Shown piece after piece: positions 1,280-36,145 of a DNA stretch of 38,077 nt. Below the pieces are notes generated by a model. The model saw nothing but the letters and a program-made list of their open reading frames with translations. It ran no database searches and was not told the origin of the DNA. Each line of letters begins with the position of its first letter. The stretch's first letter is position 1. This stretch comes from Candidatus Aenigmarchaeota archaeon ex4484_224 (GTDB lineage: Archaea; Aenigmatarchaeota; Aenigmatarchaeia; CG10238-14; EX4484-224): contig NJEA01000003.1 of assembly GCA_002254545.1 (NCBI GenBank), forward strand, positions 1 to 38,077, in the 5' to 3' direction. The translations under genes were made by a program, and so were the position numbers.

Positions 1280-3394
1280 TTAATTAAAATAAAATCTTCC
1301 AGCATCTTCTTCTTTAATTCTATAAAGTTTTACAAAATATGGAACAAGTTCAGCAATTGCTTCTATATATCTTAATTTTTTATTCCAATCTAATGTTTTA
1401 TCTAAATTTTCTGCCCAATTTTCTAATTGATCATAAAATTTTTCATTCGAGCTATCGAAATAAATTTCCAAAATTTCTCCAATCTCATTAAACAAATTAA
1501 TAACATTTCTGTAAACATCTTCTTCAAATCTTAACGAAGGATATCTTTGAGTTGGTCGAGTTTTTGTTCTTGTAGAGGCAAATATTCCGTAATCCAAAAT
1601 TCCATTTTCAGCAACAGGATATCCTAAATTTTCTAAGATTATTTTTTCATGAATTAATTGATTTCTATCTTTAAGCTTATACAATTCTGGATAAACAAAA
1701 CTATACTTTGCATCTCCTACAACTAACAATTCTTCATTTTCATACTTCAATAAAAAATCAACACGAGCGCTAAAGTAAACTTCTTTTCCTTTCACATTCA
1801 CATAACTTGCTATTTCTCTTTCTGTGAATGCTTTTCTAGGAATTGGATTTCTCGAAATTCCCATTTCTTTCCATATAAAGTGATTTACATAAATTTCATT
1901 AGGATAATAGTTTGGTTCGTGAATAGTTAAATCATGAAATAAGTTTCCGGATTGAATGTATATTCTTTCTTTTTCTGTTGTAATTTTTCTCCAAATCATT
2001 TCTCTATTAAATTCTTTATCTGCAATTGATATCATATCAAGAAGATAGCTAACAATCCTTGCTATTTTAAATGGATTTGAATGATAGCTTGCTCTAAATC
2101 TTAAAAGTTCATTTTCTTTTGGATATTGAATTTGAATGAGAGAGGTAAAGGGCATCAACAACCCAATTTTATCCCATTGAACAATACATAGAGATTCTAT
2201 ATCTATAGTAGGATGGATATTGAAATCTTCTATTGCCTTTTCTAAAATTTCTTTTATTTCATTTTCATTTAATTCTTCAAAATTTTTTCCATATTCTTTT
2301 TTGTAATAAATATTGTAAACAAATGGAAGATATTCTTTCCAAAACCTTTCTCTATCAGTTACCAATTTTCCAAAATAAACATCGAGAGAATTTTTGCTTG
2401 AAACTTTTCTTATAAGCTCGTCATAGTCAACAATTTTATAAGAAAATGATTCTTCATCAAAATATAAACGAGAATTAAATGGTATATCTATTTTTGGAAA
2501 ATAGTTTATAATGTCATCTCTTGTAATTTTTTTCTCAACTCCTAAATTAGAAAGAATGTAAGTAAGAGATTGAGAACAATATGAATACAAATCAACTGGA
2601 CCTGTAATTGGCTTTGAATAAATTCTAATATTTGGCAATTCTACTATTTCCTTTCTCTTTAAAACTTGACCAATCATTTTTGCTATTTGGGAAATCTTTC
2701 TAAGAAGTAGGAAAACTTTAATTTCTCTATTTCGATATAACTCTGAAATTAAAGATAGCAAAGAAGCAAAATTACTTTTAAATTTTTTCCTATTTTCTTT
2801 TCCAATTTTTCTTTCATCTTCCAAAATTTCTTCTTTTGGCCTATTTACCTTCTGAATTTTTTCAAAAAATTTAATCAAATCTTCTATCGCTTCTTCCGAA
2901 TATCCTTTCTTTTCAAGAAGTTTGTAAATAATTCCTAGCTTATATTTTCTATCATCGTATAATTTTGAAAATAAATCTTCTGAAAATCCTCCGTACTTTA
3001 TTTCATTTTTCTTTTTAATTCCTACATGATCATACTCAGACTTTTCCAATAATGATTCTACCTTTCCATTTAAAGGTAAAACTCCTCCATAGCCTGGATA
3101 TCCAGGAACTAAAATTAAAATTCTGGCTTCATTGGGTAAATTATCTCTTAGAATTTTGGTTAAAAGCTGAGAGGGATGATGAGGATCAGAAATTGAATAA
3201 GATGGAAATCTATTTTTTGGATGGGATCGTAGAACAGTCAAGAATGGTTCATATATGATGATTGAATTAATTTCATATGTTGAGAGTAAATCATACAATT
3301 TTTCAAGTTTTGAAGAACGTAAATAGTTAGAATATTTTGATGGAGCTACAATTATCCTTGGAGATGATGAAAACCAATAACTTTTTCTTGACAT
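1280..3394 (-). CDS. Large protein with C-terminal Cas4/RecB-like PD-(D/E)XK nuclease and possible degenerate PolB thumb-like N-terminal half
   Basis: 704-aa ORF (ATG 3394; the track starts at TTG 3397). The C-terminal motifs GNLFH...FSARVDFLL...VVGDAKY...DRNQL match the RecB/Cas4 pattern (G..H, RxD, D/ExK, Q-helix). No four-Cys Fe-S ligand set is visible. Confidence 0.7.
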   Translation of the reverse strand: MSRKSYWFSSSPRIIVAPSKYSNYLRSSKLEKLYDLLSTYEINSIIIYEPFLTVLRSHPKNRFPSYSISDPHHPSQLLTKILRDNLPNEARILILVPGYPGYGGVLPLNGKVESLLEKSEYDHVGIKKKNEIKYGGFSEDLFSKLYDDRKYKLGIIYKLLEKKGYSEEAIEDLIKFFEKIQKVNRPKEEILEDERKIGKENRKKFKSNFASLLSLISELYRNREIKVFLLLRKISQIAKMIGQVLKRKEIVELPNIRIYSKPITGPVDLYSYCSQSLTYILSNLGVEKKITRDDIINYFPKIDIPFNSRLYFDEESFSYKIVDYDELIRKVSSKNSLDVYFGKLVTDRERFWKEYLPFVYNIYYKKEYGKNFEELNENEIKEILEKAIEDFNIHPTIDIESLCIVQWDKIGLLMPFTSLIQIQYPKENELLRFRASYHSNPFKIARIVSYLLDMISIADKEFNREMIWRKITTEKERIYIQSGNLFHDLTIHEPNYYPNEIYVNHFIWKEMGISRNPIPRKAFTEREIASYVNVKGKEVYFSARVDFLLKYENEELLVVGDAKYSFVYPELYKLKDRNQLIHEKIILENLGYPVAENGILDYGIFASTRTKTRPTQRYPSLRFEEDVYRNVINLFNEIGEILEIYFDSSNEKFYDQLENWAENLDKTLDWNKKLRYIEAIAELVPYFVKLYRIKEEDAGRFYFN

Positions 3395-3446
3395 CAATTT
3401 AAACCTAAAAAATTAAACTTAAATAAATTTTTACAAATCATTAATC
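3395..3446. promoter_or_regulatory. Short AT-rich divergent promoter region shared by the two PolB-derived genes
   Basis: 52-bp spacer between divergent ATGs. AAACTTAAATAAAT at about 3415-3428 is TATA-like and roughly 20-30 nt from both starts. Confidence 0.4.
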
Positions 3447-5486
3447 ATGGAAAATCTTTATTTTCCACTTTTCATTCAAAGAGTTCCTAACAATGAAATT
3501 CATCTTCTTCTTTCTTCATTTAACAACAAACTAGTTGTGGGAAAGAGCTCATTGTCTAGAAAAGCCAAAAACTTAAGTTTAGTTCAACAACTTTTTATAA
3601 CTAATAAAATTCTTCCTTACACTTTTTTTATTCTAAAAGACAACAAATTAATTCCAATTACGGATCCTTATTTCCTACAAATTTTTAGGAATAAAGTTCT
3701 TAACAATTTTATTACATATGATATAGAAGTTTTAAATCCTAATAGACTTCCAGATCCAAATCTTGGTGATAAAATACTTTCTATTTCTTTAGTATCTAAT
3801 GAACCAATTTTATTAAGCTCTTCTCGTGAAAATTTTGAAATCAAATCTTATAAAATAGCTATTACACAAAAAGGAATTTATTATTTAGAAAATGAAGTTT
3901 TGAAATTAGTTCCTATTAGCTTAGATGAAAAAAGAATGGTAGATTTATCTTTTGAAGCACTTTCCCAATTTTTTGTAAATGTTGGATTTAATAATTTATT
4001 TTTCGATAACTATTACATTAAAGAAAGAACTAATGTAGAAATTATCCGAACAATAGATATTGTTCATCCATATCCTTCATCAAAACCTCAATTTTCAAAA
4101 ATGAAAAAAGAAGAAAGAGAAAGATTTAATCAAATTAGATCGAGAAGAAGAGGAAGAAAATTTCTACCTACAATAAATATAGATTTATTTCCTATTTCTC
4201 AAAATATAGATTTTTCATCGAGAAAGCTAAAAAGTATAGCAGACTCTCTTTATATGGAATACTATCCATTAGAAATCAAAGATTTGGCAAAAATTTCTAA
4301 AGAAGATATGGAGAAAATTGCAAAATATAACATTAGTGATAGCGAAATAACTTTGAAAATTTACCATGAATTTTTTCCAATTTTTGACTATATTCTAGAA
4401 AATGGAATTGGAAACTTTGAATACATAGTTAATAGAAAAAGGGTTGAAGAAAATTTTTTGCTTAGATATATAGCAGAAAAAAGTAAATGGAATTTGGGAA
4501 AAATTGATAAAATTTTGGGAAAAATTAATAGACTGAAAATAAATCCTAAAAAAATAGAATTTTCACCAACTTCTACTTCTCCTGGAAAATATTTAAATGG
4601 ATATCTTGCCTATCTTCCAACCTTAATTTTTGAGCTTTATAAAAATGAATTTGAAAAATCTTATCCTAAAGAAATTTTTGAAATTAGTAATAAAATTTTG
4701 GATGATTTAAAGAGAATTCGATATTCAAGTAGAGGAGATTATTTGCTAAACTCATTTTTACAAAACATTTTAAATCGATATGTCAAGCTTATGTTTTCTT
4801 CTAATGAAAAATTATTTAAAAAAATTGAAAGAAGAATAAAAAGTTTGATTAAAAAATATTTTAGATATCTTCATTATTCCTCACCAAAACTCTTAGTCTT
4901 TAACGAAATTCCAAAAGAACTAAAAAACCTAAGTTCAACTTTCATTCCATTGGAAAAATATTACATTTTTAAAAACGGTAAAAAGAGTCCATTAGTTCTT
5001 GGAAAAGTTAAAGGTTATGAATTAATTTTAGGATCTCAAATTTCCCCTCATTTAAGAAGAAATTACGGTAGATATCCTTATCAATTCATGAATTATTTTT
5101 ACCATGATATATTTTCTATTGTTAAAGAAGATAAAGATCCTAAACTTTTAGAAAAAATGCTTGAAAAAATTGAAAGGTATGAAAGAAATGAGAAAGAGAT
5201 TAATCTTAATGAAATAGCAATCATTTTAACAAAAACAAAAGATTTAGAGGAATATACAAGAATGGATCCTTTCTTGAGAAATTTAGATTTAAATAAATAT
5301 GAATATGGAGAGGAGATAAGAGTTTTAATCGTTAGAGATAATCTTGAAGAGGAACCTTATTTTGCTCCTTTGGACAAGCAAATTATCAATTCTATAGATT
5401 GGGATTGTTATAAGGAATTAGCTAAAGATTTAATTAAATTCAAAAATTCTTATAGAACGATAACCTTGGATTCTTTTATTCAATAA
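3447..5486 (+). CDS. Family-B DNA polymerase-derived protein: DEDDy 3'-5' exonuclease, degenerate palm, thumb and PIP-box-like tail
   Basis: ExoI YDIEV...PDP...DKILSIS (D92, E94); ExoII VGFNNLFFDNYYI (D187); ExoIII KYNISD (Y294, D298); thumb-like IILTKTKDLEEY...GEEIRVLIV...IDWDCY; C-terminal ITLDSF. No DxxSLYPS or YGDTDS motif. Confidence 0.75.
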   Translation: MENLYFPLFIQRVPNNEIHLLLSSFNNKLVVGKSSLSRKAKNLSLVQQLFITNKILPYTFFILKDNKLIPITDPYFLQIFRNKVLNNFITYDIEVLNPNRLPDPNLGDKILSISLVSNEPILLSSSRENFEIKSYKIAITQKGIYYLENEVLKLVPISLDEKRMVDLSFEALSQFFVNVGFNNLFFDNYYIKERTNVEIIRTIDIVHPYPSSKPQFSKMKKEERERFNQIRSRRRGRKFLPTINIDLFPISQNIDFSSRKLKSIADSLYMEYYPLEIKDLAKISKEDMEKIAKYNISDSEITLKIYHEFFPIFDYILENGIGNFEYIVNRKRVEENFLLRYIAEKSKWNLGKIDKILGKINRLKINPKKIEFSPTSTSPGKYLNGYLAYLPTLIFELYKNEFEKSYPKEIFEISNKILDDLKRIRYSSRGDYLLNSFLQNILNRYVKLMFSSNEKLFKKIERRIKSLIKKYFRYLHYSSPKLLVFNEIPKELKNLSSTFIPLEKYYIFKNGKKSPLVLGKVKGYELILGSQISPHLRRNYGRYPYQFMNYFYHDIFSIVKEDKDPKLLEKMLEKIERYERNEKEINLNEIAIILTKTKDLEEYTRMDPFLRNLDLNKYEYGEEIRVLIVRDNLEEEPYFAPLDKQIINSIDWDCYKELAKDLIKFKNSYRTITLDSFIQ

Positions 5487-12259: not shown

Positions 12260-13366
12260 TTATTCAATTCCTTCCTTCTTCAAAGCTTTTGCTAAATCTC
12301 TTATCAATCTTCTAACATCTTCTCTTAAAGAATAAACTTCATCTTCTGGAATTTCCAAAATTTTTCCTTGTTTTAGCAAATCCATTAATTTTTCAACTCT
12401 ATTCCAAACAGTCCAATAGTAAGGATCAATTCTTTCTTTATCAATGAATTCTTCTTTGAACTTTGATTTAATTTCATCTTTTGAAGAAACTTCTATTTTT
12501 AAACTTTTCAAAGCTGTAGAAGCAGCTTTATACATTACTTCATAAGTTCTTTTTAGAACTTCTTCCTTTTTTCTTAGCTCTAAAGCTCCTAAAATTGCAA
12601 ACATTTTCTTAACAAACTTTTCAGCTTTTTCTAACCATTCATCAACAAATGCTCCTTTTACATCAGTAAGCTCTTTATGTTCAATTTTCTTCCTAATTTC
12701 AATTATTTCTTTAAGCCATTCAGCATATTCTGGCTCTAAAATTCCAGGATCAACCAAATGTTTTTTAATTTCTTCATAAGCTTTACTAGGAACTGGAGGT
12801 TCTTTTCCCATAAACATTAAAACTGCTTGAGCGGTATTTAGCATTGCATAATAACAATCTTCAGCAAGCATCAAAAGCTTAACAGTCTTTGCTCTCATTA
12901 ATTTTTTAGGAGCACTTTCCATATAATTTTCAACAGCTTCTCTAGTAGTTGGAATTTTTCCCATTTTCAAAAGCTTTTGTAGAGGAGCAAAAAATCCAGT
13001 ATCGTATAAAGCAATTCCTTCTTTTATAAAATTGTAGATTATTGGATGTGCAACTCTTGCATAATCCCAAAATTCTGTCAAAGTATAATTTGGTTGAACA
13101 GAAATTCTTTCATCAATTTTCTTAGCAATTTTTTCTATTTCATCATCAATTTTTTCTCTTTGATCTTGATTTAGCTCAAATTGAGTATCATCTAAAATAA
13201 CAAAAACATCTATATCGCTTTTTGGTTTAATTTCCCCTCTTACTGCACTTCCCATCATAACTACTGACTTTATTAAATCTTTATACTTAGAAACAACTTC
13301 ATTAGCAAATTTTTTCATTTTTTCCATTATTTCTTTTTGATCTTTGGTTAATTTTTCTTCAGCCAT
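12260..13366 (-). CDS. Minimal nucleotidyltransferase (MNT) fused to HEPN, plus a second degenerate HEPN-like repeat
   Basis: GS-X10-DxD (GSAVRGEIKPKSDID); HEPN helix CYYAMLNTAQAVL; Rx4H motif RKKIEH. Confidence 0.8.
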   Translation of the reverse strand: MAEEKLTKDQKEIMEKMKKFANEVVSKYKDLIKSVVMMGSAVRGEIKPKSDIDVFVILDDTQFELNQDQREKIDDEIEKIAKKIDERISVQPNYTLTEFWDYARVAHPIIYNFIKEGIALYDTGFFAPLQKLLKMGKIPTTREAVENYMESAPKKLMRAKTVKLLMLAEDCYYAMLNTAQAVLMFMGKEPPVPSKAYEEIKKHLVDPGILEPEYAEWLKEIIEIRKKIEHKELTDVKGAFVDEWLEKAEKFVKKMFAILGALELRKKEEVLKRTYEVMYKAASTALKSLKIEVSSKDEIKSKFKEEFIDKERIDPYYWTVWNRVEKLMDLLKQGKILEIPEDEVYSLREDVRRLIRDLAKALKKEGIE

Positions 13367-14200
13367 TCAAAAAACCTCTAAAATATCTTTTGGAATTAAT
13401 TCCTTAAATTTATCAACTATTTTATTTGCAATTTCATAAGCTCTTTTTAAATCATCTACACTTGCTTCTTTTATTTTGTGATCAATATCTTTCCAAATTT
13501 TATCGATTTCTTTAAACAAATCTAAATATTCTTTTTCAATTTTTCCTTCTTCAACCATTTTTTCTAAAAATTTAATGCTTCCTTTAGCATCTGTTTGCTC
13601 TTTATAAAAATGCATTATAACTGCTTGTACTATATCTAAAACAGCATATCTTAAATCAAAAATCATTGAAGCGATTTCTCCTTTAATTTTTTTCAACCTA
13701 GTTTCTGCTACTTTTGCTTTTAAGCTAATTGTCTCTTCGCTAGGCGGCAATAATCCTTTTTCCAACATTCTTTGAATAGGCTTAACAAAACCAGTATCGT
13801 AAATTACTAAACCATACCTTAAAAAACTTACTAATTCAGGACTTCCTTTTTTAATCCAATCCCAAAATTCTGTTAAGCCTGTTGTTTGAACATGCAAATC
13901 TCCAATTTCTCTAGCAATTAAATGTAATCTAGCTACAATTTTTTCTAAATCTTCACTTGATTTTGTAGCAGTATCGTCTAAAATTACCCAAACATCTACA
14001 TCGCTAGTTGGTTTTATATCCCCTCTAACAAAAGAACCAAAAATTAAAACAGATTTAACTAAATCACCAAACCTTTTTCTAATTTCAGATGTAAATTTAA
14101 CAACTTTTGAATAAAGTTCTTTTTTTCTATCTTCGGATATAACCTTTTTTTCTTCTTTTTCAGAACTTCCAAGCTCTTTTTCCAAATCCTCTAAGCTCAT
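13367..14200 (-). CDS. MNT-HEPN fusion, paralog of the adjacent gene
   Basis: GS-X10-DxD (GSFVRGDIKPTSDVD); shares LTEFWD, YDTGF..P.Q..L..G..P...E with the neighbour; the HEPN-like region has WKDIDH instead of Rx4H. Confidence 0.8.
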   Translation of the reverse strand: MSLEDLEKELGSSEKEEKKVISEDRKKELYSKVVKFTSEIRKRFGDLVKSVLIFGSFVRGDIKPTSDVDVWVILDDTATKSSEDLEKIVARLHLIAREIGDLHVQTTGLTEFWDWIKKGSPELVSFLRYGLVIYDTGFVKPIQRMLEKGLLPPSEETISLKAKVAETRLKKIKGEIASMIFDLRYAVLDIVQAVIMHFYKEQTDAKGSIKFLEKMVEEGKIEKEYLDLFKEIDKIWKDIDHKIKEASVDDLKRAYEIANKIVDKFKELIPKDILEVF

Positions 14201-14235
14201 GATATCTAAAATTTGGATTTTTTTCCAATAAATTA

Positions 14236-16149
14236 TTATCTAAGTTCTTCTTTCTTCCAAACTTCAGCTTTTCCTTTCTCAACAGCTGCTTTTCCCAAAA
14301 ATGTATGCTTTTCTTCAGGAACAACAAGCATACCTTGCAATGGATCAAAAGCATGCTCTTTAATTATTGCCATTTGTCTTTCAATTGCTCCAATTTCTCT
14401 ACTAGATAATCCAAAAAATTCTGGTGGCAATTTTTCTGGTGGTATATCTTTTTCTAACATCCTTGCAACAGTTTTTAAAACCATTATGCTTTTTTTGAAA
14501 GGATCTTGTCCTCCTCCTCTTTCAAAAATCAAATAAACTTTATGATATTTTCCCAAACCTGCTTGCCTCAAAATCCAAAACAATTTATAATAATTGATAT
14601 CCCCAAATTCTAATGGTAAGTGTGGATGTAAAGGATTTGGATAATTAGAGTGGATAGAAAGAATATATTTCCCAGCATCTGGATGATCTTTTACAAACAT
14701 GTTTAATTCTTCCCAAGGATCAACTCCATGTGTAGCTATATGCTCAAAATCAATTGTCATAAAGATTTTGTTCGCATGGGTATAACCTTTTTCTTCTAAA
14801 TATTTTCTTGCGGCTTTTACTACTGCTAAAATTTGAGAAGGTCTCCATAAATTATATCTTCCAGCATACTCAGGACTTCTTGAATCTGGAACTTCTACTG
14901 TGATCATCACATTTTCAGCATTCTTTTTAAGTTCTTCAATTTCTTTTCTTGCAATTTCTTCATCTTTTTCAACACTTCTAACTTCCTCTTCTATTATTTT
15001 CTGAATACTTTCCTTTTCTTTTCCTTCTAGCCATTTAACCAAATTTTCTAAATGACCTAAAAGCATTTGTCCAGCAACTAAAGCATAGAAAAATTCTTTA
15101 AAAACTTCAGCTTCTGCCTTACCAGCCTCCACATAATTTTCCCAAACATATTCCAAAAAGCTTTGTTCTTTTTTTCCATTTTGCTCATATTCATTCAAAA
15201 GTTTTTTAATTAAAGAATTATATCTTGAGAGTTTGGTAAGTTCTTGCCAAATATAATTTCTTTCTCTATTAAACCAAACATAATGAGCAATTATATTGAA
15301 AGTATCCCAAAGCCTTGCCAATCTTTCTTTCATTCTCCATTTAAAATGTTCATTGCTAGACAAAAATTCTTCTAAAGTTTCTTTTATAGCCTCTTTGTTA
15401 GCATTCTCAATTTTTTTAATCTCCTCTTTATATTCTTGCTCGGTTAACACTCCTCTAGCAACCAATTCAGCCAAGAGAGTTGTTCCTAATTCAGCAGGGT
15501 TAGGAGAATGTCTAATTCTCTCAAGATTTCCTAAATCTATATTCTTTCTTCTTCCTAATTCTTCCAAAATTCTAATAATCTTTGCTCTTTGTTTTTCATC
15601 ATAAATTAAAATTCTTTCTCTTGGCAAAATATATCCAGCCCAATTTTCTTTATACCCATATCTTTCAATAAACCACTTTCTAAGCTTTTCATCTTTATTT
15701 AACAAAAAAGAAATGAATAAACCATCTGGAGAGCAAGGAATTATTTCAAGCTTATGACTAGTATAAGTAATTAATTCCGGCCAAAAGTGCAAACAAGAAT
15801 GAAAAAGAACATATTTAGCTCCTATAAAAATTCCTGATTTTAGAGATAATCTTGCATGATTTTGAGCTTGAGCGTAATCACTAATTTCAGGAATTTCAAA
15901 AGGAATCGTTAAGCTACCATGCAAAAGCAAAGTAATTCCTTGCTTGTTTGCTAAATATCTAATTTCTTTGCTTTCTGTATATTGAATTTCATGAGCAACA
16001 TCCAAAGCAATTTCTGTTGCATTAACTCCTCTTGTCAAAATATATCCAACTTTTCTTAAAGTCGTTGCTAAACTTTCATCTCTAGCTGCGTAATAAATTC
16101 CTGTTGAGCTTGCAACTTGAAATTGCTTTAATTGAAATTCTTCTTCCAT
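14236..16149 (-). CDS. Xylose-isomerase/AP-endonuclease-2-like TIM-barrel metalloprotein with a large helical insertion
   Basis: Ordered strand-end motifs LLLHGS, VLFHS, ITVEVP, MTIDFEH, LSIHSN, HLPL, LIFERGG. About 300 helical residues separate VLFHS from ITVEVP. Confidence 0.65.
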   Translation of the reverse strand: MEEEFQLKQFQVASSTGIYYAARDESLATTLRKVGYILTRGVNATEIALDVAHEIQYTESKEIRYLANKQGITLLLHGSLTIPFEIPEISDYAQAQNHARLSLKSGIFIGAKYVLFHSCLHFWPELITYTSHKLEIIPCSPDGLFISFLLNKDEKLRKWFIERYGYKENWAGYILPRERILIYDEKQRAKIIRILEELGRRKNIDLGNLERIRHSPNPAELGTTLLAELVARGVLTEQEYKEEIKKIENANKEAIKETLEEFLSSNEHFKWRMKERLARLWDTFNIIAHYVWFNRERNYIWQELTKLSRYNSLIKKLLNEYEQNGKKEQSFLEYVWENYVEAGKAEAEVFKEFFYALVAGQMLLGHLENLVKWLEGKEKESIQKIIEEEVRSVEKDEEIARKEIEELKKNAENVMITVEVPDSRSPEYAGRYNLWRPSQILAVVKAARKYLEEKGYTHANKIFMTIDFEHIATHGVDPWEELNMFVKDHPDAGKYILSIHSNYPNPLHPHLPLEFGDINYYKLFWILRQAGLGKYHKVYLIFERGGGQDPFKKSIMVLKTVARMLEKDIPPEKLPPEFFGLSSREIGAIERQMAIIKEHAFDPLQGMLVVPEEKHTFLGKAAVEKGKAEVWKKEELR

Positions 16150-16159
16150 TTTTATCTAC

Positions 16160-17917
16160 CTACAAAGGAACTTTAAAATGACTATTCAATAATCCAATTA
16201 TTTCTAACCAATATATAGCTGTAACATTAAAGTAAAACTTTGTAAATCTATCTTTGAATGCATGTTCATAAGGAGTTTTTGCTGCGAAAAAAGCAATCTG
16301 CCATCCAAGATTATTTAAAATAGAAGAAAATTTTTGAATTGTTTTTTCAACTTTATATGTTTTTTTAATTTTTCCAACCTCTTCACTACTTTCTAAAGAC
16401 ATTTGTTCAAAACCACCATTTTGGAAAATTAATGGATATTCGCTAGATAAAACCTTTGAAATTTCTACTTCTTTTCCTTCAAGCAAACCAAATTCTCCCA
16501 AAAGCAAACCAATTTCTTTTTCAAGTTTTTTATCTATTGCTTTTAATTCAAGCATATGACCCAAAATTATATTTTGAGTTTTAAGATAAGCTTTAAAAGT
16601 ATTTATTTCAAAATCTTCTAACTCTGCACCATTTGGCAGTTTAATCATCGTTCTCATGATTGGTATATCTAGAAAAACAAAGTAAGGAGAAAATGGCCAA
16701 ATTTCATGTGTTTGAGTTTCTTCAATTTTGTAAGTATAATAAGAGCTCAATTCCTTAATTGCTTCATAAACGTCATAAGGAGTAATTATAACCTGATATT
16801 TCTTTTCAATTCTTTTAACAATATCTCTTAAAACAGAATCTACTGCTTTAGGAATTGGCAAAGCATTAATTTCATTCTTAAAGGTTTCTCCTTTTGCTTC
16901 AACGATTTTTTTAATATATTCAATTTCTTTTTTTGTAAATCCTGCTTTTTCTAAAGAAATTGTTGTAGAAGGAGATTCTGTTGGAGGTCTGTATTTTTCA
17001 TAGGGCAAAATTGGCCTCCATGCCCAAATTCTCATAAAATCTATGCTGAAAGCTTGGGCATCTGGTCTAAAAAATAACTTTTTTGTAGTAGCTCTCAAAT
17101 TTGGGCTTTCTAAAGCATCAGAAATCATTTTATACCTTGCAATTAATGGTTTAACCATTTTCTTATATTCCTCAACAGAAGCTCTCCTAGCATTAACTAA
17201 ACTTAAAAGCCTTTGATATCTATTTTTAACAGTTTCAAAAAACATTTTTTTCCATTCAACGAAAAGTTTATTTTTTGTCGCTAAAATAACTCCTTCAGCT
17301 TCAGTAACTTGCAATTTCTCAGCAATTTTTTTAGGATCGATATCTTCATCATTTAACTTCATAAAATCTGAAATTATAGTTGGCCATCTAATTGCTATAG
17401 ATCTCATAGAAATTCCTTCTCCAGTATGAACATCTACCATATCTATAAAAATCGATCTTAAAGTTTGATTTCCTTCTAAAATTAATTTCTTTCCTTCTTC
17501 TTCTTTTCCTTCTTTTATTAACTTTTTTCCTTCCTCTATTTTATTGAAATAATCCATATATTCTTTGTATTTTCTTAAATCATGTTCACCTAATTCCAAA
17601 TCAGAAATTGCATTTGCAATGCTTGCTAAATGCGCTTTAATTTTATTTTGAAGTTCTTCTCTTTGAGAAATTGTTAAATCAAAATAAGGTTTATTTACTG
17701 GAGAAACGTATATCCATTCATCAAGCTTATATCTAACAAATCCTCTTTTTGGCAAATAAGTTGAAATTTTGTAGTAAGCTGCTGTTCCAGAACCAGGTGG
17801 TCCAGTATAATTTAATAAAATGTTTTGGTTTAAAGGAACGACATTAATGCCAGTACCTGGCTTTAAATCACCACTCCAATCAGGAAATGGACCTTCTGGA
17901 TATATATCTCTTTCCAT
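16160..17917 (-). CDS. Hypothetical protein (585 aa) with coiled-coil segments
   Basis: Long ORF in operon context with heptad-like helices (QREELQNKIKAHLASIANAISDLE; YQRLLSLVNARRASVEEYKK). No catalytic motif recognised. Confidence 0.75.
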   Translation of the reverse strand: MERDIYPEGPFPDWSGDLKPGTGINVVPLNQNILLNYTGPPGSGTAAYYKISTYLPKRGFVRYKLDEWIYVSPVNKPYFDLTISQREELQNKIKAHLASIANAISDLELGEHDLRKYKEYMDYFNKIEEGKKLIKEGKEEEGKKLILEGNQTLRSIFIDMVDVHTGEGISMRSIAIRWPTIISDFMKLNDEDIDPKKIAEKLQVTEAEGVILATKNKLFVEWKKMFFETVKNRYQRLLSLVNARRASVEEYKKMVKPLIARYKMISDALESPNLRATTKKLFFRPDAQAFSIDFMRIWAWRPILPYEKYRPPTESPSTTISLEKAGFTKKEIEYIKKIVEAKGETFKNEINALPIPKAVDSVLRDIVKRIEKKYQVIITPYDVYEAIKELSSYYTYKIEETQTHEIWPFSPYFVFLDIPIMRTMIKLPNGAELEDFEINTFKAYLKTQNIILGHMLELKAIDKKLEKEIGLLLGEFGLLEGKEVEISKVLSSEYPLIFQNGGFEQMSLESSEEVGKIKKTYKVEKTIQKFSSILNNLGWQIAFFAAKTPYEHAFKDRFTKFYFNVTAIYWLEIIGLLNSHFKVPL

Positions 17918-17948
17918 AATTTAATTTTGATTTTTCTGTTAATTATGT

Positions 17949-18110
17949 TTAAAGTACAAAAAGAATTGCTCCTATAAGAACTAATAAAATTCCAAAGAAA
18001 ACTCCGGTTTTTGAAAAGGCTTCTAGTTGATAATCAAGAGTTCCTGGCATACCTATTATCATTCCTATTCCAGCTATTATCAAAATTATTCCAGCTATCT
18101 TATTCATCAT
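17949..18110 (-). CDS. Small two-TM membrane protein (53 aa), not in ORF track
   Basis: MMNKIAGIILIIAGIGMIIGMPGTLDYQLEAFSKTGVFFGILLVLIGAILFVL; the start overlaps the upstream stop (ATGA at 18107-18110). Confidence 0.75.
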   Translation of the reverse strand: MMNKIAGIILIIAGIGMIIGMPGTLDYQLEAFSKTGVFFGILLVLIGAILFVL

Positions 18111-18247
18111 ATTCCTACCATTGCTAAATAAACTAAAAGTGATGCCAATAAAAATTGAAGTGAAAATGCTCTAAAAGATTTTGAATTAAAAGAAGCGAAA
18201 AAGAGAAAAATTGAAAAAAATAGAAGCAAAATATTTAGCAAATCCAT
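18107..18247 (-). CDS. Small two-TM membrane protein (46 aa), not in ORF track
   Basis: MDLLNILLLFFSIFLFFASFNSKSFRAFSLQFLLASLLVYLAMVGI; coupled by an ATGA overlap to the 53-aa ORF. Confidence 0.7.
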   Translation of the reverse strand: MDLLNILLLFFSIFLFFASFNSKSFRAFSLQFLLASLLVYLAMVGI

Positions 18248-18278
18248 AAATTTAATTACAAAAATTAAAAATTAATTT

Positions 18279-18827
18279 ATGCCTATTTTTGCTAGAACTA
18301 AGCTTGTAATACAAGATGATTGTTTTAGTTATACTCCAGGAAGTCCATATCCTGGAATTTCTTATGCAACAATTAATTACGAAGGTCCAAATCCCCATAA
18401 AATTTATCCAATAATTAAAAAAATTGTTGCACAGCAATTGCAAGTTGATGAAAGAGATATACAAGAGAAAGAAGTTAATTGGGATAGGAGTTCTGAAGTT
18501 GAAAGATTTAGTTTTAGCATAGAAGCTGTAAAGGAATTTGATAGTTTTACTTATATGTATATCAAAGTTGATGTAAAGGGAGAGGCTAAACCTAGTAAAA
18601 ACTTTGAAAGAGAAGGAAAGCTAAATATTAAAATTGAACCAATTTTAAGAACAGAATATCCTCAAGATACCATGTGGCAAAGATCAATTTTTTATGAATT
18701 TTTTAGGATGCTTTTCCATAAGCTTATTTATAAAGATACTAGATTAAGATATCTTGAAAAATGTAGAGATTTGGGAATTAGATTGCAATTAGAAATTAAG
18801 AAATTTTTGAATACATTAAGTGAGTAA
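18279..18827 (+). CDS. Hypothetical alpha/beta protein, paralog A
   Basis: 182-aa ORF that aligns end to end by eye with the next ORF. Confidence 0.8.
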   Translation: MPIFARTKLVIQDDCFSYTPGSPYPGISYATINYEGPNPHKIYPIIKKIVAQQLQVDERDIQEKEVNWDRSSEVERFSFSIEAVKEFDSFTYMYIKVDVKGEAKPSKNFEREGKLNIKIEPILRTEYPQDTMWQRSIFYEFFRMLFHKLIYKDTRLRYLEKCRDLGIRLQLEIKKFLNTLSE

Positions 18828-18828
18828 A

Positions 18829-19326
18829 ATGGCCTCTTGGGTTTTAATAGACGAATGTTTAGCTCCTCAAAGGTTTATAGTTATAAATTTTAAGGGAAAA
18901 GATCCTTTCAATGCTTATAGAGTTACTCAACAAATTTTAAGAGAAACTTTACAAATCGGAAGTTCAAAATATTATGAACTAGAATTTAGGTGGGATATAA
19001 CTACAGATCCAAGAGAATTTTTTATAAGAGTAAGTGCTGAAAAGCCATTTGCATGGAGAACAAAAGGAGTATTTGAAGTAATGATGCATGGATATCAACC
19101 TAGCGATAAAAACAATCCAAATGGCAGACTTACTCTAAAAATTTCTTCTAAGCTAGTAACTGAATACAAATTAAATACTGCATTTCAAAAGACAAAATTT
19201 TACAAAGCTTTATTGCATATGTATAACTTTTTATTTTTGTATAGAGTTAGAAGAAAACATTTGGATGCTTGTAGAAAATTAACTTTTGAAATTGAAAGAA
19301 AATTTAGAGAGGTTCTAGGAATTTAA
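18829..19326 (+). CDS. Hypothetical alpha/beta protein, paralog B
   Basis: ATG 18829 lies 1 nt after the upstream stop (the track uses GTG 18820). Shares D.C, IN..G..P...Y, E...WD, G.L..KI...L.TEY, Q...FY and CR.L with paralog A. Confidence 0.8.
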   Translation: MASWVLIDECLAPQRFIVINFKGKDPFNAYRVTQQILRETLQIGSSKYYELEFRWDITTDPREFFIRVSAEKPFAWRTKGVFEVMMHGYQPSDKNNPNGRLTLKISSKLVTEYKLNTAFQKTKFYKALLHMYNFLFLYRVRRKHLDACRKLTFEIERKFREVLGI

Positions 19327-19349
19327 ATTTTAAAATTTAAATTTAAATC

Positions 19350-19922
19350 ATGTGCAAACTTTTTCTAGATATCTTAAAAAATCCTACCAAAACAATAAAG
19401 AAAGAAAAGAATAGAAAAAATGAAAAGGAAATTGCTAGCATGCTAATAGTTGAAGCTATTTTACTAGCAATTTCTTTTGTACCATTAGTAAGAACTTCTT
19501 TAACAAGCTATACAGAAATTTCAGCTTTTGTTATAACATTAGCAGTAATTTTGATAGTAGGAATTTTAATAGAAAGCTACATTCTAAATTTGGTTTTTAA
19601 AGTGTTTTCTGACAAAGGAAAATTCTTCCTTTCTCTTAAATCAATTGTATTAGCTTTATATCCAATTTCAGTAGGAACTTTAATTTCAGTTTATCTAATA
19701 AACTTTTTAACTTCACTATATCTAATTTCAGCAATAATAGAAACTATACTTGTAGCTTTTGGTCTTTCACTATTTTTCAGAAGCTTAAAAGAATTTTACA
19801 ATGAAAGCTATATAGTAATCTACATAATAACAATCTTAATTTCGATGGCAATACTTGCAGGAATGTACACAATTATCTTCACAAGAATTTCATCAATTCC
19901 TTCTACTCCTTTTCTTTTTTAA
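19350..19922 (+). CDS. Yip1-domain-like polytopic membrane protein
   Basis: N-terminal ILKNPTKTIK motif, about five hydrophobic helices, KGKF and SLKEFY loops, as in prokaryotic Yip1 proteins. Confidence 0.6.
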   Translation: MCKLFLDILKNPTKTIKKEKNRKNEKEIASMLIVEAILLAISFVPLVRTSLTSYTEISAFVITLAVILIVGILIESYILNLVFKVFSDKGKFFLSLKSIVLALYPISVGTLISVYLINFLTSLYLISAIIETILVAFGLSLFFRSLKEFYNESYIVIYIITILISMAILAGMYTIIFTRISSIPSTPFLF

Positions 19923-22469: not shown

Positions 22470-23396
22470 TTATTCAACAAAAATTGCATCATCTATTATC
22501 ATATCCGAATCTCTATCTAATGGCAAAACAAGTTTTGCAATTATTTTGCTATTATATTTATTTCCTTTAGCAACTTCGTCATAATGTTTCATTACTGCTA
22601 AAGTTGCAGCTCTTGTACCTTTAAATCTTTTTCCTGCTAAAACTAAAATCCATGATTTTTTATTAAAAGGATTTTTCATTTTAACAACAATTCCGATATC
22701 ATCTTCAAAGTAATATTTTTTAGATAAACTAGAATAAACAGCCCATTCTTTTTCTTTTACAAATTTAATTGGCAGTTTTTCATTTATTTTATCAATCCAT
22801 ATGTTAACTTTAGGACCACCAACCAAAATTAAATTTTTTTTCAAATCATCTTTTGTAATTTGGGTATCAAGTTTGTAATTTATGATTGGACTTTGGTTAG
22901 AAATTCTTCCTAAAAAAAGTGCTAAATCAATAGCTGCATATCCATCACTAGCTCTTGCCCCATATTTGCCATGAGGATCTGGCGAACCCACAACTATAAG
23001 AGAATTAAATTTTCCATTTCTAACAAAAGGTTCAAAAAAATCAATTCTAACCAAAGATTTTTTTGGAGCAATTAATTTTGGTTCATCTATTAATTTAAAA
23101 GAAAAAACTGGATATTTTAAAGAATAAATTTTAGCAACAGCGCCAACTCTTTCCTCTTTCTTCACTAATTTTATTATTCCAAGCTTCTCTAACTTTCTAA
23201 TGTAATAGTATATCTTTTGTTCATGAACTTTCAATTCCCTAGCTATATCCATTGCACAACTTGGCTTTTTATAAATAAGCTTTAAAATTTTAATCGCTAA
23301 AGGGTTTGAAAGAATTTCTAAAGCTTTTGAATTTTTAATTTCTAGACTTTCGTAAATTTTTTCCTTCGAATCAGTTTCTTCGACAAAATATTCCAT
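22470..23396 (-). CDS. ArsR-like winged-HTH transcriptional regulator with a C-terminal alpha/beta domain
   Basis: LSNPLAIKIL..I...PSCAMDIARELKVHEQKIYYYIRKLEKLGII; the C-domain has VVGSPDPHG, NLILVGGP.VN and LAG....GTRAA. Confidence 0.8.
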   Translation of the reverse strand: MEYFVEETDSKEKIYESLEIKNSKALEILSNPLAIKILKLIYKKPSCAMDIARELKVHEQKIYYYIRKLEKLGIIKLVKKEERVGAVAKIYSLKYPVFSFKLIDEPKLIAPKKSLVRIDFFEPFVRNGKFNSLIVVGSPDPHGKYGARASDGYAAIDLALFLGRISNQSPIINYKLDTQITKDDLKKNLILVGGPKVNIWIDKINEKLPIKFVKEKEWAVYSSLSKKYYFEDDIGIVVKMKNPFNKKSWILVLAGKRFKGTRAATLAVMKHYDEVAKGNKYNSKIIAKLVLPLDRDSDMIIDDAIFVE

Positions 23397-32713: not shown

Positions 32714-35700
32714 TTACTTTCCAACAATTTTCCTAATCTTTTCTATGCTTTCAGGATTTGCCAAAGTGGATATATCTCCAAGCTCTTGTCCAATAAGCAT
32801 TCTTTTCAAAATCCTTCTCATTATTTTTCCACTTCTTGTTTTTGGTAAATCTTCAACAAAATAAACTTTATATGGTTTTGCAATAGGACCAATTTCTTTA
32901 ACAACTTGCTGAATTATTTCTTCTTTCATTTTTTCATTTGGCCTTCCGAATCTTAAAACCACAAAAGCAATTGGAACTTCTCCTTTAATTTCATGTGGAG
33001 CTCCAACAATTGCACATTCATTTACAGCATAATGCTTAGTAATTGCATTTTCTAGCTCAGCAGTTGAAAGTCTATGACCAGCAACTTTTAAAACATCATC
33101 AAGCCTTCCTGTAATCTTTATCAAACCATTCTTATCTTTAAAAGCTCCATCGCTTGTATAATAAATTTCTTCTCCAAACCGAGACCAATAAGTTTTGAAA
33201 TATCTTTCTGGATTTCTATAAACTCCTCTTAGCATTCCAGGAGCAAAAGGCTTTAAAATAACTAAGCTTCCTTCTTTCTTAGCTTTTTTAATTGGCTTTC
33301 CTTTTTCGTCCAAAATTTCAAATTTAACTGGAGGAAATGGTAAGCCAGCATAAGTTGGTTTGAATGGACCAATTCCTGGCAAAGAAGTTAGTAAAACTCC
33401 CCCGGTTTCTGTTTGCCACCAAGTATCAACGATTGGACATCTTTCTTTTCCAACTTCTTTGAAAAACCAATACCAAGCTTCTTCATTTATCGGTTCTCCA
33501 ACAGAACCAAGTAACCTTAAAGTTTTAAAGGAGAATTTTCTAACAACTTGTCCATCATACTTTTCAAACATTCTTACAGCAGTTGGAGCAGTATAGAAAA
33601 TTGTTACTCCATATTTTTCCATTATTTGAGCCCATCTTTCGGGAGTTGGCCAATCTAAAGCTCCTTCATAAATTATAAAAGTTGCACCATTTAGCAAAGG
33701 ACCATAACAAGAATAAGTATGACCAGTAATCCAGCCTATATCTGCTGTTGACCAAAAAATATCATTATCATGCAAATCAAAAATCCATTTTGCAGTAATA
33801 TAGGCTTGAACCATATAGCCACCAACTGCATGTACTATGCCCTTAGGCTTACCTGTTGTATTATGAACAAAGAAACCATTAGCAATGTATGAGCTGTTTG
33901 AAAATGAAGTTATATCATAAATAAACCTTTCTTCAAATTTTCCTACCTCAACTTTCTTTACTCTAACAAAAAATGCCTCTGCATTTATTATCTTCAAAAT
34001 TTTTTCTTTCCATTCTTTTATCTTTCTTAAAACCTCTCTTTCCCTTTCTTCTAATAATTTCTCTATTTTCTTCTTAAATTTTGAAGAAGGTTCATACAAA
34101 AATTTATGAACTGAATTTTTTGAATATCCAGTCTTTTTTGCAATTTCCTCTAAACTTAATCTTAAAAGTAAAACCTTTTTATTAATTCTTTTTTCTCCCA
34201 AAATTCTTTTTTCGATCAAATCTAGAAAATCTAAAATTTTAACTAAATTCTTTCTTTTGATTTTCCTATATCCAAGTTTATATCCATCCATTCCTAAACT
34301 ATGAATTAATTTTTTCGGAAGTTTTACTTCTTTCAAAACTTCTTTTAAAAGTTTATCAATCTTTAAAATTTCTATATTAGTAGATCCTTTTCTTTCAATT
34401 TCCAACAATTTTTCAAGTTTTAATTTCTTCTTCTTATCGTTAAACCCAATTTTTTCATAAAATCTTTTGAGATTTTCCTTGTCAGAAATTCTTAAGGAAA
34501 ATACTTTTATACGGTAAATTTTATCTTTAAATTTTGTTTTAGCATTTCTTTCATAATAACTTGAAAGAATTCCAAGCCTTAAAAGTAATAGCTTAATCTG
34601 TTCTATCAAAACCTTGCTAGTGCTAACAATTTTAACACTACTCTTACTTACAGTACCTTCAGCATCGAAGAATCCTCTTATAAATCCTCTTATTATTTCA
34701 TTCTTACTAACTTGAATCTTTTGAGGGACTTCTCTTTCCTTACTTTTCTTACAAATTTCTGGAAAGTTTACCTTAATAAATTCTTTTACTAACTTAGAAC
34801 AAAACAAAAGTCTTTGTCTATCTTCTTTTTTTATTTTTCCTTCGGTACCAAATACCTTCCTTATAATTTTATTGTAATGCTTTAGATTTTCTACATCCTT
34901 ATCAGTTAAAACTAAACAATTTTCTGAAAAGTTTCCATCTCCAGCAAAATACCCAATTAATTCCGCCAAATTTTCGTCCAATCTTCTAGGAAGCTTTACT
35001 TTTTTAATTATCTTTTTAACTTTAGGAATTTCAAGAAAAACTTCTTTTCCTTCTATCTTTGGAATTGGTAAAATTAGAACATCTCCCCCTTCAATTTGAG
35101 ATGCCTCTTTTTCTTCTATTTCTAAATTTTCATTCAAAACAAACAAAGGATGAGAAGGAGTTAATTCTATCATTCCAAATGATGTATAAATTTTGTAAAG
35201 GGGTAATGGCCAAAAATAGGAATGTAAATCTTTTATTCCATCAACTTTCGAAGTTAGCTTATTCAAATCAAAACTTAAAATTCCTTCTTTTTTATTAAGT
35301 TCTTTTATTGGTAAAATCTTACCAGAAGATGTTTGAACTAAAGTATCTCCCTTTACACATCCACTGGTATAGAGAATAAAAGCAATGTCTTCAGCATCAA
35401 GTTTTTTTGGTTCACAATAATCTTCTTCATTTTCAATCAATTCATGGTACCAATAATCCCTTCCTTTTTTCATTTTAACTTTATTGTTTGCCCTTTTTAC
35501 AACAATTACTTTCTTAACTTTTGTTCCCTTAATTCCTTCATCAGCTTTTTCTTTCAAGTTAATCAATTTTCCTCTCCTATAATAACCATCTGCAGTAATC
35601 AAAAACTTTGCTTGAGTATCATTTAATCTAATTTGCAATGCTTTTGAACTAAAAGCTGAAAAAACTACTGTATGAATAGCTCCTATTCTTGCACAAGCAA

Positions 35701-36145
35701 GCATAGAAATTATAACTTCTGGGATCATTGGTAAATAAATTCCAACAACATCTCCTTTTTTAACTCCTAGCTTCTTTAAAGCATTAGCAAGTTTATTAAC
35801 TTCTTTATATAGTTGATAGTAAGTATAAATCCTTGGTCTTTCATTTGTTGGCTCTGGCTCCCAAATAAAAGCAACTTTATTTTTTCTTCCAAGTTCAAAA
35901 TTTCTTTCAAAAATGTTATAAGTAATATTCGTTTTGCCTCCAACAAACCAATGAAAGTAAGGAGGTTTATGAACAAATATTTTATTCCATTTTTTAAACC
36001 AAACCAATTCCTTTGCAACTTTTTCCCAAAATTTAATTGGATTTTTTTGAGCTTCTTTGTAAATTCTAGGAGAAGATATCCAAGCTTTTTTTCTTAAAGA
36101 TTTAGAAGGATAAAACAAATTCCCCTTTTTAATCATTTTTTCCAT
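32714..36145 (-). CDS. acs: Acetyl-CoA synthetase (AMP-forming), intein-containing
   Basis: LACARIGAIH.VVF, YTSG|TTGKPKG, STADIGWITGH, GSVGEPIN, DTWWQTETGG, GRLDD..KVAGHR, LPKTRSGKIMRR. The extein is 643 aa after removing the 500-aa insert. Confidence 0.95.
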   Translation of the reverse strand: MEKMIKKGNLFYPSKSLRKKAWISSPRIYKEAQKNPIKFWEKVAKELVWFKKWNKIFVHKPPYFHWFVGGKTNITYNIFERNFELGRKNKVAFIWEPEPTNERPRIYTYYQLYKEVNKLANALKKLGVKKGDVVGIYLPMIPEVIISMLACARIGAIHTVVFSAFSSKALQIRLNDTQAKFLITADGYYRRGKLINLKEKADEGIKGTKVKKVIVVKRANNKVKMKKGRDYWYHELIENEEDYCEPKKLDAEDIAFILYTSGCVKGDTLVQTSSGKILPIKELNKKEGILSFDLNKLTSKVDGIKDLHSYFWPLPLYKIYTSFGMIELTPSHPLFVLNENLEIEEKEASQIEGGDVLILPIPKIEGKEVFLEIPKVKKIIKKVKLPRRLDENLAELIGYFAGDGNFSENCLVLTDKDVENLKHYNKIIRKVFGTEGKIKKEDRQRLLFCSKLVKEFIKVNFPEICKKSKEREVPQKIQVSKNEIIRGFIRGFFDAEGTVSKSSVKIVSTSKVLIEQIKLLLLRLGILSSYYERNAKTKFKDKIYRIKVFSLRISDKENLKRFYEKIGFNDKKKKLKLEKLLEIERKGSTNIEILKIDKLLKEVLKEVKLPKKLIHSLGMDGYKLGYRKIKRKNLVKILDFLDLIEKRILGEKRINKKVLLLRLSLEEIAKKTGYSKNSVHKFLYEPSSKFKKKIEKLLEEREREVLRKIKEWKEKILKIINAEAFFVRVKKVEVGKFEERFIYDITSFSNSSYIANGFFVHNTTGKPKGIVHAVGGYMVQAYITAKWIFDLHDNDIFWSTADIGWITGHTYSCYGPLLNGATFIIYEGALDWPTPERWAQIMEKYGVTIFYTAPTAVRMFEKYDGQVVRKFSFKTLRLLGSVGEPINEEAWYWFFKEVGKERCPIVDTWWQTETGGVLLTSLPGIGPFKPTYAGLPFPPVKFEILDEKGKPIKKAKKEGSLVILKPFAPGMLRGVYRNPERYFKTYWSRFGEEIYYTSDGAFKDKNGLIKITGRLDDVLKVAGHRLSTAELENAITKHYAVNECAIVGAPHEIKGEVPIAFVVLRFGRPNEKMKEEIIQQVVKEIGPIAKPYKVYFVEDLPKTRSGKIMRRILKRMLIGQELGDISTLANPESIEKIRKIVGK
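33860..35359 (-). mobile_element. Intein with LAGLIDADG homing endonuclease (500 aa)
   Basis: Block A CVKGDTLV; block B LTPSHPLF; LAGLIDADG LAELIGYFAGDG and FIRGFFDAEG; block F IYDIT...SYIANGFF; block G VHN followed by Thr(+1). Confidence 0.95.

Follow-up and report, generated by a model that had tools for sequence, protein, structure and literature searches.

A phylum-wide gene block of the Aenigmatarchaeota that brings together MNT-HEPN proteins, a candidate Endonuclease IV-like TIM barrel and families without known relatives

Described relatives and the conserved block

The pairing of an MNT nucleotidyltransferase with a HEPN domain is classic for type VII toxin-antitoxin systems, in which the MNT enzymes nucleotidylate their HEPN partners; HEPN domains are RNases. 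Two proteins that combine these domains, MNT368 and MNT277, are encoded within a group of nine genes at positions 12260–19922 of the stretch studied here, which is the first 38,077 nucleotides of contig NJEA01000003.1 from Candidatus Aenigmarchaeota archaeon ex4484_224 (the window). The organism belongs to the Aenigmatarchaeota, within the DPANN archaea, and its assembly comprises 485 kb in 32 contigs and is 80.5 % complete. DPANN genomes are tiny and nearly every gene that they keep should matter, yet much of their lineage-specific content is unannotated. We report that eight of the nine genes belong to an ancestral, near-universal and tightly linked unit of the Aenigmatarchaeota.

Two published accounts come close to this locus. 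Makarova, Wolf and Koonin (2019; PMC6393860) describe a DPANN-specific MNT-HEPN fusion, cluster cls.004259 (NEQ050), which occurs 'typically in house-keeping context' and 'most probably' derives from a toxin-antitoxin module, and they rank it as a top-priority uncharacterised gene. Going by that description, MNT368 is alike in being an unusually conserved nucleotidyltransferase-HEPN fusion in a housekeeping context in a DPANN genome. It differs in that the passages on NEQ050 are confined to one gene family, with no conserved partners mentioned, whereas MNT368 lies in a fixed block with an Endonuclease IV-like barrel (TIM637), a coiled-coil protein (CC585), microproteins and a pair of paralogs (the par pair). 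Castelle et al. (2021; PMC8204110) report an Aenigmarchaeota-specific 'Module 128' of at least 20 co-occurring families, for which the account of the module gives no functional prediction. Its families resemble those of the block in being confined to the lineage, widespread, unannotated and in many cases predicted to be membrane-bound; as presented in that account, it differs in being a statistical co-occurrence set without gene order, structures or enzyme assignment. The literature that we searched, with supplementary tables lying outside the search, holds no description of the block, its structures or the Endonuclease IV-like assignment.

Nine open reading frames (ORFs) were confirmed at the positions given in the original prediction, a note made from the letters of the window alone, with six on the minus strand and three on the plus strand to either side of a 31 bp spacer (18248–18278). 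Reading away from the spacer, the minus strand encodes two two-pass membrane microproteins, tm46 (18107–18247, 46 residues) and tm53 (17949–18110, 53 residues), followed by CC585 (16160–17917, 585 residues), which has a β-sheet body and an antiparallel coiled-coil stalk, TIM637 (14236–16149, 637 residues), a TIM barrel that resembles xylose isomerase in its fold and Endonuclease IV in its ligand set, MNT277 (13367–14200, 277 residues) and finally MNT368 (12260–13366, 368 residues). The last of these holds a nucleotidyltransferase domain, a HEPN domain and a helical C-terminal extension in one chain, and MNT277 is its shorter paralog. Counted from MNT368 upwards, the spacings are 0, 35, 10 and 31 bp, with a single 4 bp overlap between tm53 and tm46. 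The plus strand carries par182 (18279–18827, 182 residues), the first α/β paralog of a family without known relatives, the second paralog par168 (18820–19326, 168 residues), which starts with GTG and overlaps par182 by 8 bp, and a Yip1-like multi-pass membrane protein (19350–19922, 190 residues).

A profile or an alignment of each large family was searched against 151 genomes drawn evenly across the Aenigmatarchaeota. The CC585 family was found in 150 of these (E ≤ 1e-5), as was the TIM637 family (E ≤ 1e-20), the latter nearly always as a single copy; 148 genomes hold the par family (E ≤ 1e-3), most of them in two copies, and 148 hold the MNT368 family (E ≤ 1e-40). Only one sampled genome, G064 (family f11, 94 % complete), lacks every one of the four families; the whole block may truly have been lost there, or a single contig may have escaped assembly. 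With genes clustered in this way, the absence of one contig could be enough to account for the case, and we give it little weight as correlated loss.

Gene order was compared in 40 loci, namely 20 kb stretches around CC585 from 20 genomes of the same order as the window and stretches around the par genes from 20 genomes of other families. Among the same-order loci MNT368, MNT277, TIM637 and CC585 are contiguous in 18, and the full divergent order, including the par pair, is found in 16. Departures were seen in two genomes of genus g6, in which the genes are split over separate contigs with all of them retained, and in two genomes of family f4, in which the par pair is located elsewhere. Among the other families the par genes, CC585 and TIM637 lie together in 17 loci, 16 of them with an MNT368-type gene, and in the remaining three genomes the genes are present elsewhere. 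The order is therefore kept in 33 of the 40 loci overall. The divergent arrangement persists across families with only 25–45 % protein identity and with differing flanking genes, and the stop and start codons of tm53 and CC585, as well as those of CC585 and TIM637, overlap in many loci. The par pair stands apart from CC585 in five genomes (G005, G031, G109, G140 and G166); wherever a locus contains the pair, par168 adjoins par182.

The original prediction of a multi-gene unit is borne out by these results, as the large families co-occur in 148–150 of the 151 genomes and cluster in a recurring order. The minus-strand operon of this unit consists of tm46, tm53, CC585 and TIM637 with either one MNT-HEPN fusion or two; opposite it, the divergent operon consists of par182 and par168, joined in relatives by a gene for a small coiled-coil protein that is described below. 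As for its distribution outside the sampled genomes, a scan of genome contigs, taken over the best 80 of 182 relatives, gave the labels Aenigmatarchaeota, 'uncultured archaeon' or 'archaeon' with the single exception of a contig labelled Thermoplasmata. This contig (L081, 2,890 bp) carries a homolog of MNT368 that is 70 % identical to that of the window and is probably mis-binned or mislabelled. One TIM637 homolog carries the label Nanoarchaeota, and Nanobdellota make up most of one ESM Atlas cluster near par182.

The genes that recur around the block in relatives are of a housekeeping kind. The gene for ribosomal protein L35Ae lies 3′ of MNT368 on the same strand, at a distance of 33–61 bp, in three loci from different families (L022, 15303–15557; L023, 4732–4995; L039, 5033–5311) and within about 2.2 kb of MNT368 in six further loci. 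Other genes that recur near the block encode TFB, ABCE1, a KH-domain protein, a GTPase and GatD. ORF clustering of the 40 loci returned no recurring mobile-element or defence genes near the block and no recurring glycosyltransferase or lipid gene beside it. The best explanation of the data is that the block is a phylum-wide housekeeping module and not a mobile toxin-antitoxin or defence island; its near-universality, single copy and housekeeping neighbours make the role in defence that had been suggested unlikely.

Both microproteins contain two hydrophobic segments. An alignment of 26 sequences of tm53 shows conserved G14, P22, a Y-Q loop, G40 and G47, and a two-pass ORF (about 52–65 residues) or a four-pass ORF (111–139 residues) stands beside CC585 in 31 of the 33 loci in which CC585 neighbours par182, with tm53 overlapping the start of CC585 in several. 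The conservation of tm46 is below that of tm53: a second, tm46-like two-pass ORF was found in seven same-order loci (L013, L014, L015, L016, L020, L027 and L030). The four-pass ORFs that take the place of tm46 and tm53 in four loci (L043, 10602–10937; L046, 9586–9942; L054, 9764–10183; L057, 10567–10935) are possible fusions of the two. Both microproteins are real genes for conserved membrane proteins, and their frequent overlap with the start of CC585 makes the membrane association proposed for the system plausible. Three or four of the partners of no known kind are membrane-associated.

The gene list of the original prediction has to be changed at two points. The 190-residue protein matches the Yip1 family PF04893 at 30.5 bits (cut-off 28.6; E = 4e-7) and has several hydrophobic segments, but homologs lie near the block in only three of the 40 loci (L014, L016 and L048), so that eight of the nine proposed genes remain and the Yip1-like gene is probably a neighbour here rather than a conserved member. 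Conversely, a gene of the plus-strand operon of relatives had been overlooked. ORF clustering of the 40 loci revealed a small coiled-coil protein of 73–138 residues with a short hydrophobic and basic N-terminus, a proline-rich linker and a conserved C-terminal helix, which has no Pfam match. Its gene lies 0–99 bp 3′ of par168 on the same strand in 19 of the loci (for example, L015, 12171–12458, and L056, 10960–11283). In the genome of the window a homolog (E = 3e-12) is located on another contig (C8, 3989–4243, plus strand), between ORFs of 272 and 565 residues.

The encoded proteins

The nucleotidyltransferase domain PF01909 is recognized in both MNT368 (45.6 bits, E = 9.5e-12) and MNT277 (37.6 bits, E = 2.9e-9), well above the cut-off of 21 bits, and the two proteins are paralogs with 38 % identity (E = 1e-44). 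The motif G-S...D-x-D (G39, S40, D51 and D53) is invariant in 39 aligned sequences of both paralogs. The HEPN family PF05168 stays below its Pfam cut-off of 22 bits, with 15.5 bits (E = 0.02) for MNT277 and no match for MNT368. In a profile comparison with 16 stand-alone PF05168-positive proteins of the phylum, the C-terminal domain of MNT368 was aligned by hhalign with 93.9 % probability (E = 1.7e-7, 118 columns), and MNT277 with 36 % (E = 3.7e-4). The HEPN motif R-x4-H of MNT368 (R225 and H230) is invariant in 15 orthologs, and in a separate alignment of 25 orthologs L041 is the sole exception; its conservation points to an RNase activity of the protein's own. In MNT277 all 14 aligned orthologs read W-K-x-I/M-D-H, with the HEPN arginine replaced by tryptophan. 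The helical extension of MNT368 comprises about 110 residues, and its orthologs in other families have lysine-rich C-terminal tails.

That there are two MNT-HEPN genes in the window, as first noted, is correct, and this number is usual within the order; outside it there is usually one. The MNT profile matches mostly two proteins per genome in this order, of which the duplication is mainly a trait, and mostly one in other families, where MNT277 was seen in only one of the 20 loci (L045). Stand-alone HEPN genes are patchily distributed and were found in 31 of 61 genomes. We considered whether the MNT paralogs stand in for a missing CCA-adding enzyme and rejected this idea, as the canonical enzyme is present above cut-off in 97 of 101 genomes of the phylum. 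In the genome of the window TIGR03671 matched MNT368 only, and we attribute the missing canonical CCA-adding gene to the assembly being 80 % complete. An antisense ORF of 109 residues was observed inside MNT368 in 24 loci.

Two families of known proteins invite comparison with MNT368. The pair HepT/MntA is similar in placing a Polβ-type nucleotidyltransferase beside a HEPN domain with R-x4-H. MNT368 is different in being a single polypeptide, near-universal and restricted to one locus, and the arginine is lost in MNT277. The type VII models of NCBIfam fall far below their 60-bit cut-off, with 24.9 and 25.5 bits for MntA and 16.9 bits, in the wrong region, for HepT. The residue two positions beyond the HEPN histidine is a glutamate in MNT368, where HepT presumably uses a tyrosine for AMPylation. 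In PADLOC 2.0 both MNT proteins were matched by generic MNT models alone (PDC-S09, E = 4.6e-15), and there were no matches for the other seven proteins. The nearest solved relative of MNT368 is kanamycin nucleotidyltransferase, ANT(4′) (1kny, 6p01; E = 1.2e-8), which likewise has an N-terminal nucleotidyltransferase and a C-terminal helical domain. The match is limited to residues 15–76, whereas the C-terminal domain of MNT368 is a HEPN domain with R-x4-H, and there is no sign of an antibiotic substrate. The best NCBIfam and Protein Data Bank (PDB) relatives of the MNT N-terminal domain, ANT(9) and ANT(4′), match over a generic nucleotidyltransferase core only and lie far under the family cut-offs.

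The model of TIM637, predicted with AF2 from an alignment of 87 sequences (predicted local distance difference test, pLDDT, 91.2), contains an eight-stranded barrel with a helical insertion of about 290 residues (approximately 120–413) between strands 4 and 5. The C-terminal tail of about 50 residues has low model confidence and appears flexible, yet it is among the best-conserved parts of the sequence. The family PF01261 is under its cut-off for TIM637 (23.3 compared with 31.1 bits) and is present in the precomputed annotation of 35 of 59 homologs; searches of PDB sequences with the TIM637 profile, or with the C-terminal 238 residues alone, gave nothing significant. VIA superposition indicates a close match to several barrels, with Z = 21.7 for 3wqo_A (261 residues, r.m.s. 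deviation 3.4), 21.5 for Endonuclease IV (1qtw; 263 residues, r.m.s. deviation 3.1, 14 % sequence identity) and about 21 for xylose isomerases.

The fold scores are tied, and what would discriminate between these barrels is the set of conserved polar residues. H77, H117, E419, D467 and H500 of TIM637 do not vary in the alignment, conservation reaches at least 90 % at H470, H510 and E543, and in the model all of the conserved polar residues lie at or just past the ends of strands. The comparison with Endonuclease IV families was run in halves, as the insertion spoils a global hhalign alignment. The N-terminal half aligns with six canonical nfo proteins of the phylum (94.7 %, E = 5.6e-8), with H77 and H117 paired with invariant nfo histidines; the C-terminal half aligns weakly (E = 0.03), with the remaining residues paired with the invariant E, D-x-x-H, H, H and E of nfo. 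Comparison with a family of about 275 residues that is Endonuclease IV-like, common in the phylum and a 99 % probable relative of nfo gave the identical pairing (N-terminal half, 96 %; C-terminal half, weak, E = 0.0075). The paired positions are those that we take to be the nine zinc ligands of the trinuclear site in Escherichia coli Endonuclease IV. TIM637 has the same barrel as Endonuclease IV, and its positions His/His/Glu/Asp-x-x-His/His/His/Glu pair with those of Endonuclease IV and the 275-residue family in the profile alignments; it differs in its insertion, its conserved tail and one variable ligand position. Going by these residues, its metal site appears to fit a phosphoesterase of the Endonuclease IV type better than a sugar isomerase, and the earlier description of TIM637 as a TIM-barrel metallo-hydrolase is supported at the level of prediction.

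The canonical nfo model TIGR00587 (cut-off 129.65 bits) has no match at E ≤ 1e-5 in the genome of the window, TIM637 included, and only six of 61 genomes have nfo above the cut-off. The genomes with canonical nfo, those of family f9 among them, contain TIM637 as well, which shows that the two are not alternatives. In several genomes of family f2 an Endonuclease IV-like TIM-barrel gene of about 270 residues was seen within about 1 kb of MNT368; examples are L024 (G003:C3:36656-37123), L021 (G015:C1:176395-176919), L017 (G018:C1:161554-162045) and G036:C4:8957-9505. We also note an ORF of 107 residues (14213–14536, plus strand) that is antisense to the conserved 3′ end of TIM637 and recurs in six loci; like the antisense ORF inside MNT368, it most likely just mirrors the conservation of the sense frame.

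The coiled-coil nature ascribed to CC585 agrees with its predicted model (AF2, pLDDT 87.3), which consists of a β-sheet body and a long antiparallel helical hairpin (helices 76–135 and 206–264). The tip of this stalk (about residues 139–205) forms a small subdomain and is the most conserved part of the protein; 22 residues are invariant among 128 sequences and are concentrated in residues 100–260. CC585 has no Pfam match, no significant match to PDB sequences by profile and no usable ESM Atlas match, and a Foldseek search of the PDB and BFVD, in which the body was not searched separately, gave no row at E ≤ 1e-3. Maturation proteins of single-stranded RNA phages recurred in low-probability rows, with a template-modelling (TM) score of about 0.1, and are not credible relatives. 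A wide VIA search matched residues 83–269 only, to generic coiled coils (Z ≤ 10.6). In 1.84 billion representative sequences the CC585 profile matched 236 proteins at E ≤ 1e-3. Full-length relatives among the 150 that were listed have about 500–660 residues, and the few weaker ones with a name bear the label Aenigmarchaeota or 'DPANN group'.

The paralogy of par182 and par168, already suspected, is confirmed by an identity of 27 % (E = 9e-19). Neither protein has a Pfam or NCBIfam match, and the par profile gave nothing significant against PDB sequences. The orthologs of par168 are basic, with a median isoelectric point (pI) of 9.2. The ESM Atlas model of par182 (pLDDT 0.81) has close structural neighbours within its own family only; outside it, the neighbours are open β-sheet proteins with TM scores of 0.36–0.48.

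Possible functions of the block

In our view, the most attractive interpretation of these data, which we favour tentatively and as a possibility rather than a probability, is that the products form one membrane-tethered machine whose targets would be phosphodiester ends in nucleic acid, with RNA as the likeliest substrate. What suggests such a machine is the HEPN motif, which is intact, together with the nucleotidyltransferase, a metal site of the Endonuclease IV type, basic tails and a context of information processing. In such a machine the R-x4-H site of MNT368 would cut RNA, and the multi-metal centre of TIM637 would remove or open a phosphorylated 3′ end or another phosphodiester. For the nucleotidyltransferase domains there would be two options, to add nucleotides to the healed end or to gate the HEPN site, and MNT277, having lost the HEPN arginine, could be a regulatory or asymmetric partner. 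The scaffold and the membrane anchor would consist of CC585, whose stalk has a conserved tip, together with the par pair, the two-pass microproteins and the small coiled-coil protein.

Several points weigh against this interpretation. No RNA-binding domain was found in any member of the module, and the enzymes are mildly acidic, with a median pI of about 6. For TIM637 the VIA Z scores (21.7–20.4) are tied across ketose 3-epimerases, Endonuclease IV and xylose isomerases, and the best Foldseek rows are sugar (ketose) 3-epimerases, with E above 1e-3. The profile comparisons were confined to Endonuclease IV families; in these comparisons the C-terminal half gave only the weak alignments reported above, and one of the nine ligand positions (residue 508 in TIM637) is variable while the other eight are conserved. 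The membrane proteins, the small protein with its hydrophobic N-terminus and the long stalk would equally fit a structural or membrane-remodelling role, and the presence of L35Ae and other housekeeping genes nearby may be no more than an inherited gene order.

The original prediction favoured reversible protein nucleotidylation, in which the MNT proteins would modify a protein of the module with a nucleotide (NMPylation or AMPylation) and TIM637 would hydrolyse the resulting protein-nucleotide phosphodiester, so switching a membrane complex. Both nucleotidyltransferase motifs are intact, the genes for MNT and TIM637 are adjacent throughout the phylum, and the metal site of TIM637 looks to be of a phosphoesterase type rather than the minimal site of an epimerase. 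The type VII systems, in which MNT enzymes modify their HEPN partners, offer a possible analogy, and the NCBIfam matches to MntA are weak. Set against this, no de-AMPylase is known to have the fold of TIM637, MNT368 has a glutamate at the presumed AMPylation position, and the conserved R-x4-H would suit an RNase. We regard this explanation as unlikely.

A pathway for a small molecule, a sugar or a lipid head group at the membrane is also arguable, and again we rather doubt it. The MNT proteins would here activate a hydroxyl, TIM637 would be an isomerase, an epimerase or a head-group phosphodiesterase, the par proteins would carry the ligand and the membrane proteins would be acceptors. Such a role accords with ANT(9) and ANT(4′) as the best relatives of the MNT N-terminal domain, with the ketose 3-epimerases at the top of the Foldseek rows for TIM637 and the name 'sugar phosphate isomerase/epimerase' that some sources give its homologs, with the three to four small membrane-associated proteins of the module and with the open β-sheet neighbours of par182. 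It is opposed by the restriction of the ANT matches to a generic core, by the pairing of the His-rich ligand set of TIM637 with Endonuclease IV-type families, by the conserved HEPN motif and by the lack of a recurring glycosyltransferase or lipid gene in the 40 loci.

It is possible, at a similarly low likelihood, that there is no single machine and that at least two essential functions with no relation to each other, one served by a trio of enzymes and another by a set of membrane and scaffold proteins, have kept an ancestral neighbourhood in small, slowly rearranging genomes. The recurrence of the GTPase, GatD and TFB near the block, the retention of all the genes on different contigs in genus g6 and the separation of the par pair from CC585 in five genomes would all be expected if so. 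The overlapping codons that link tm53, CC585 and TIM637 in many loci, and the survival of the divergent arrangement at 25–45 % protein identity while the flanks vary, are more difficult to reconcile with mere neighbours.

We consider it improbable that the block is a DNA-repair module in which TIM637 is the AP endonuclease or 3′-diesterase of the lineage and the other proteins are accessory. The ligand set of TIM637 and the rarity of canonical nfo would be in keeping with this, whereas family f9 has nfo alongside TIM637, most of the other genomes have the separate 275-residue Endonuclease IV-like gene, and HEPN domains are RNases. Least likely of all, and very improbable, is a type VII-like toxin-antitoxin or antivirus defence system, since the MNT-HEPN combination, the weak PADLOC matches to stand-alone MNT candidates and the published derivation of the DPANN fusion are outweighed by a single fused gene in place of a pair, by scores far below the MntA and HepT cut-offs, by the absence of PADLOC matches for the other seven proteins, by a presence in 148 of 151 genomes compared with 31 of 61 for stand-alone HEPN genes, and by a housekeeping context free of mobile-element genes in the loci compared.

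Window context and significance

The G+C content across the window is 21–34 %, and the genes around the block include those for ArgRS, deoxyhypusine synthase, a PGI-like protein, a YGR210-type GTPase, GatD and GlmS. Three other features of the window were noted. Two large divergent ORFs of 705 residues (1280–3397, minus strand) and 679 residues (3447–5486, plus strand) have no Pfam match at E ≤ 1e-4. A protein of 308 residues (22470–23396, minus strand) combines an N-terminal winged helix of the ArsR/TrmB type with an S-layer-like outer domain (PF05124), which is an unusual pairing. The longest ORF of the window (32714–36145, minus strand) encodes 1143 residues.

What is new here is that a gene of the MNT-HEPN type is placed in a fixed, phylum-wide block, and that a barrel resembling Endonuclease IV, with a large insertion, can be named as its probable catalytic partner. 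Four to five partner families are without relatives or fold matches, and two microproteins are shown to be conserved. An isolated 'hypothetical' protein thereby becomes part of a set of testable enzymes and candidate complexes. A bolder interpretation, which we think decidedly unlikely, is that the block specifies a lineage-defining, membrane-anchored complex built on at least two unseen folds (CC585 and the par pair), which would link a nucleotidyltransferase and a HEPN RNase to an Endonuclease IV-like phosphoesterase that bears an insertion, and would act either on nucleic acid taken up at the envelope, as in the salvage of host nucleotides, or in a new pathway that cuts, heals and tails RNA. 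If this were true, it would give a pathway to a gene long flagged as 'dark matter' among the MNT-HEPN genes of the DPANN archaea; and if the function of the block concerns RNA ends or host-derived nucleic acid, it would bear on the symbiont lifestyle of these organisms.

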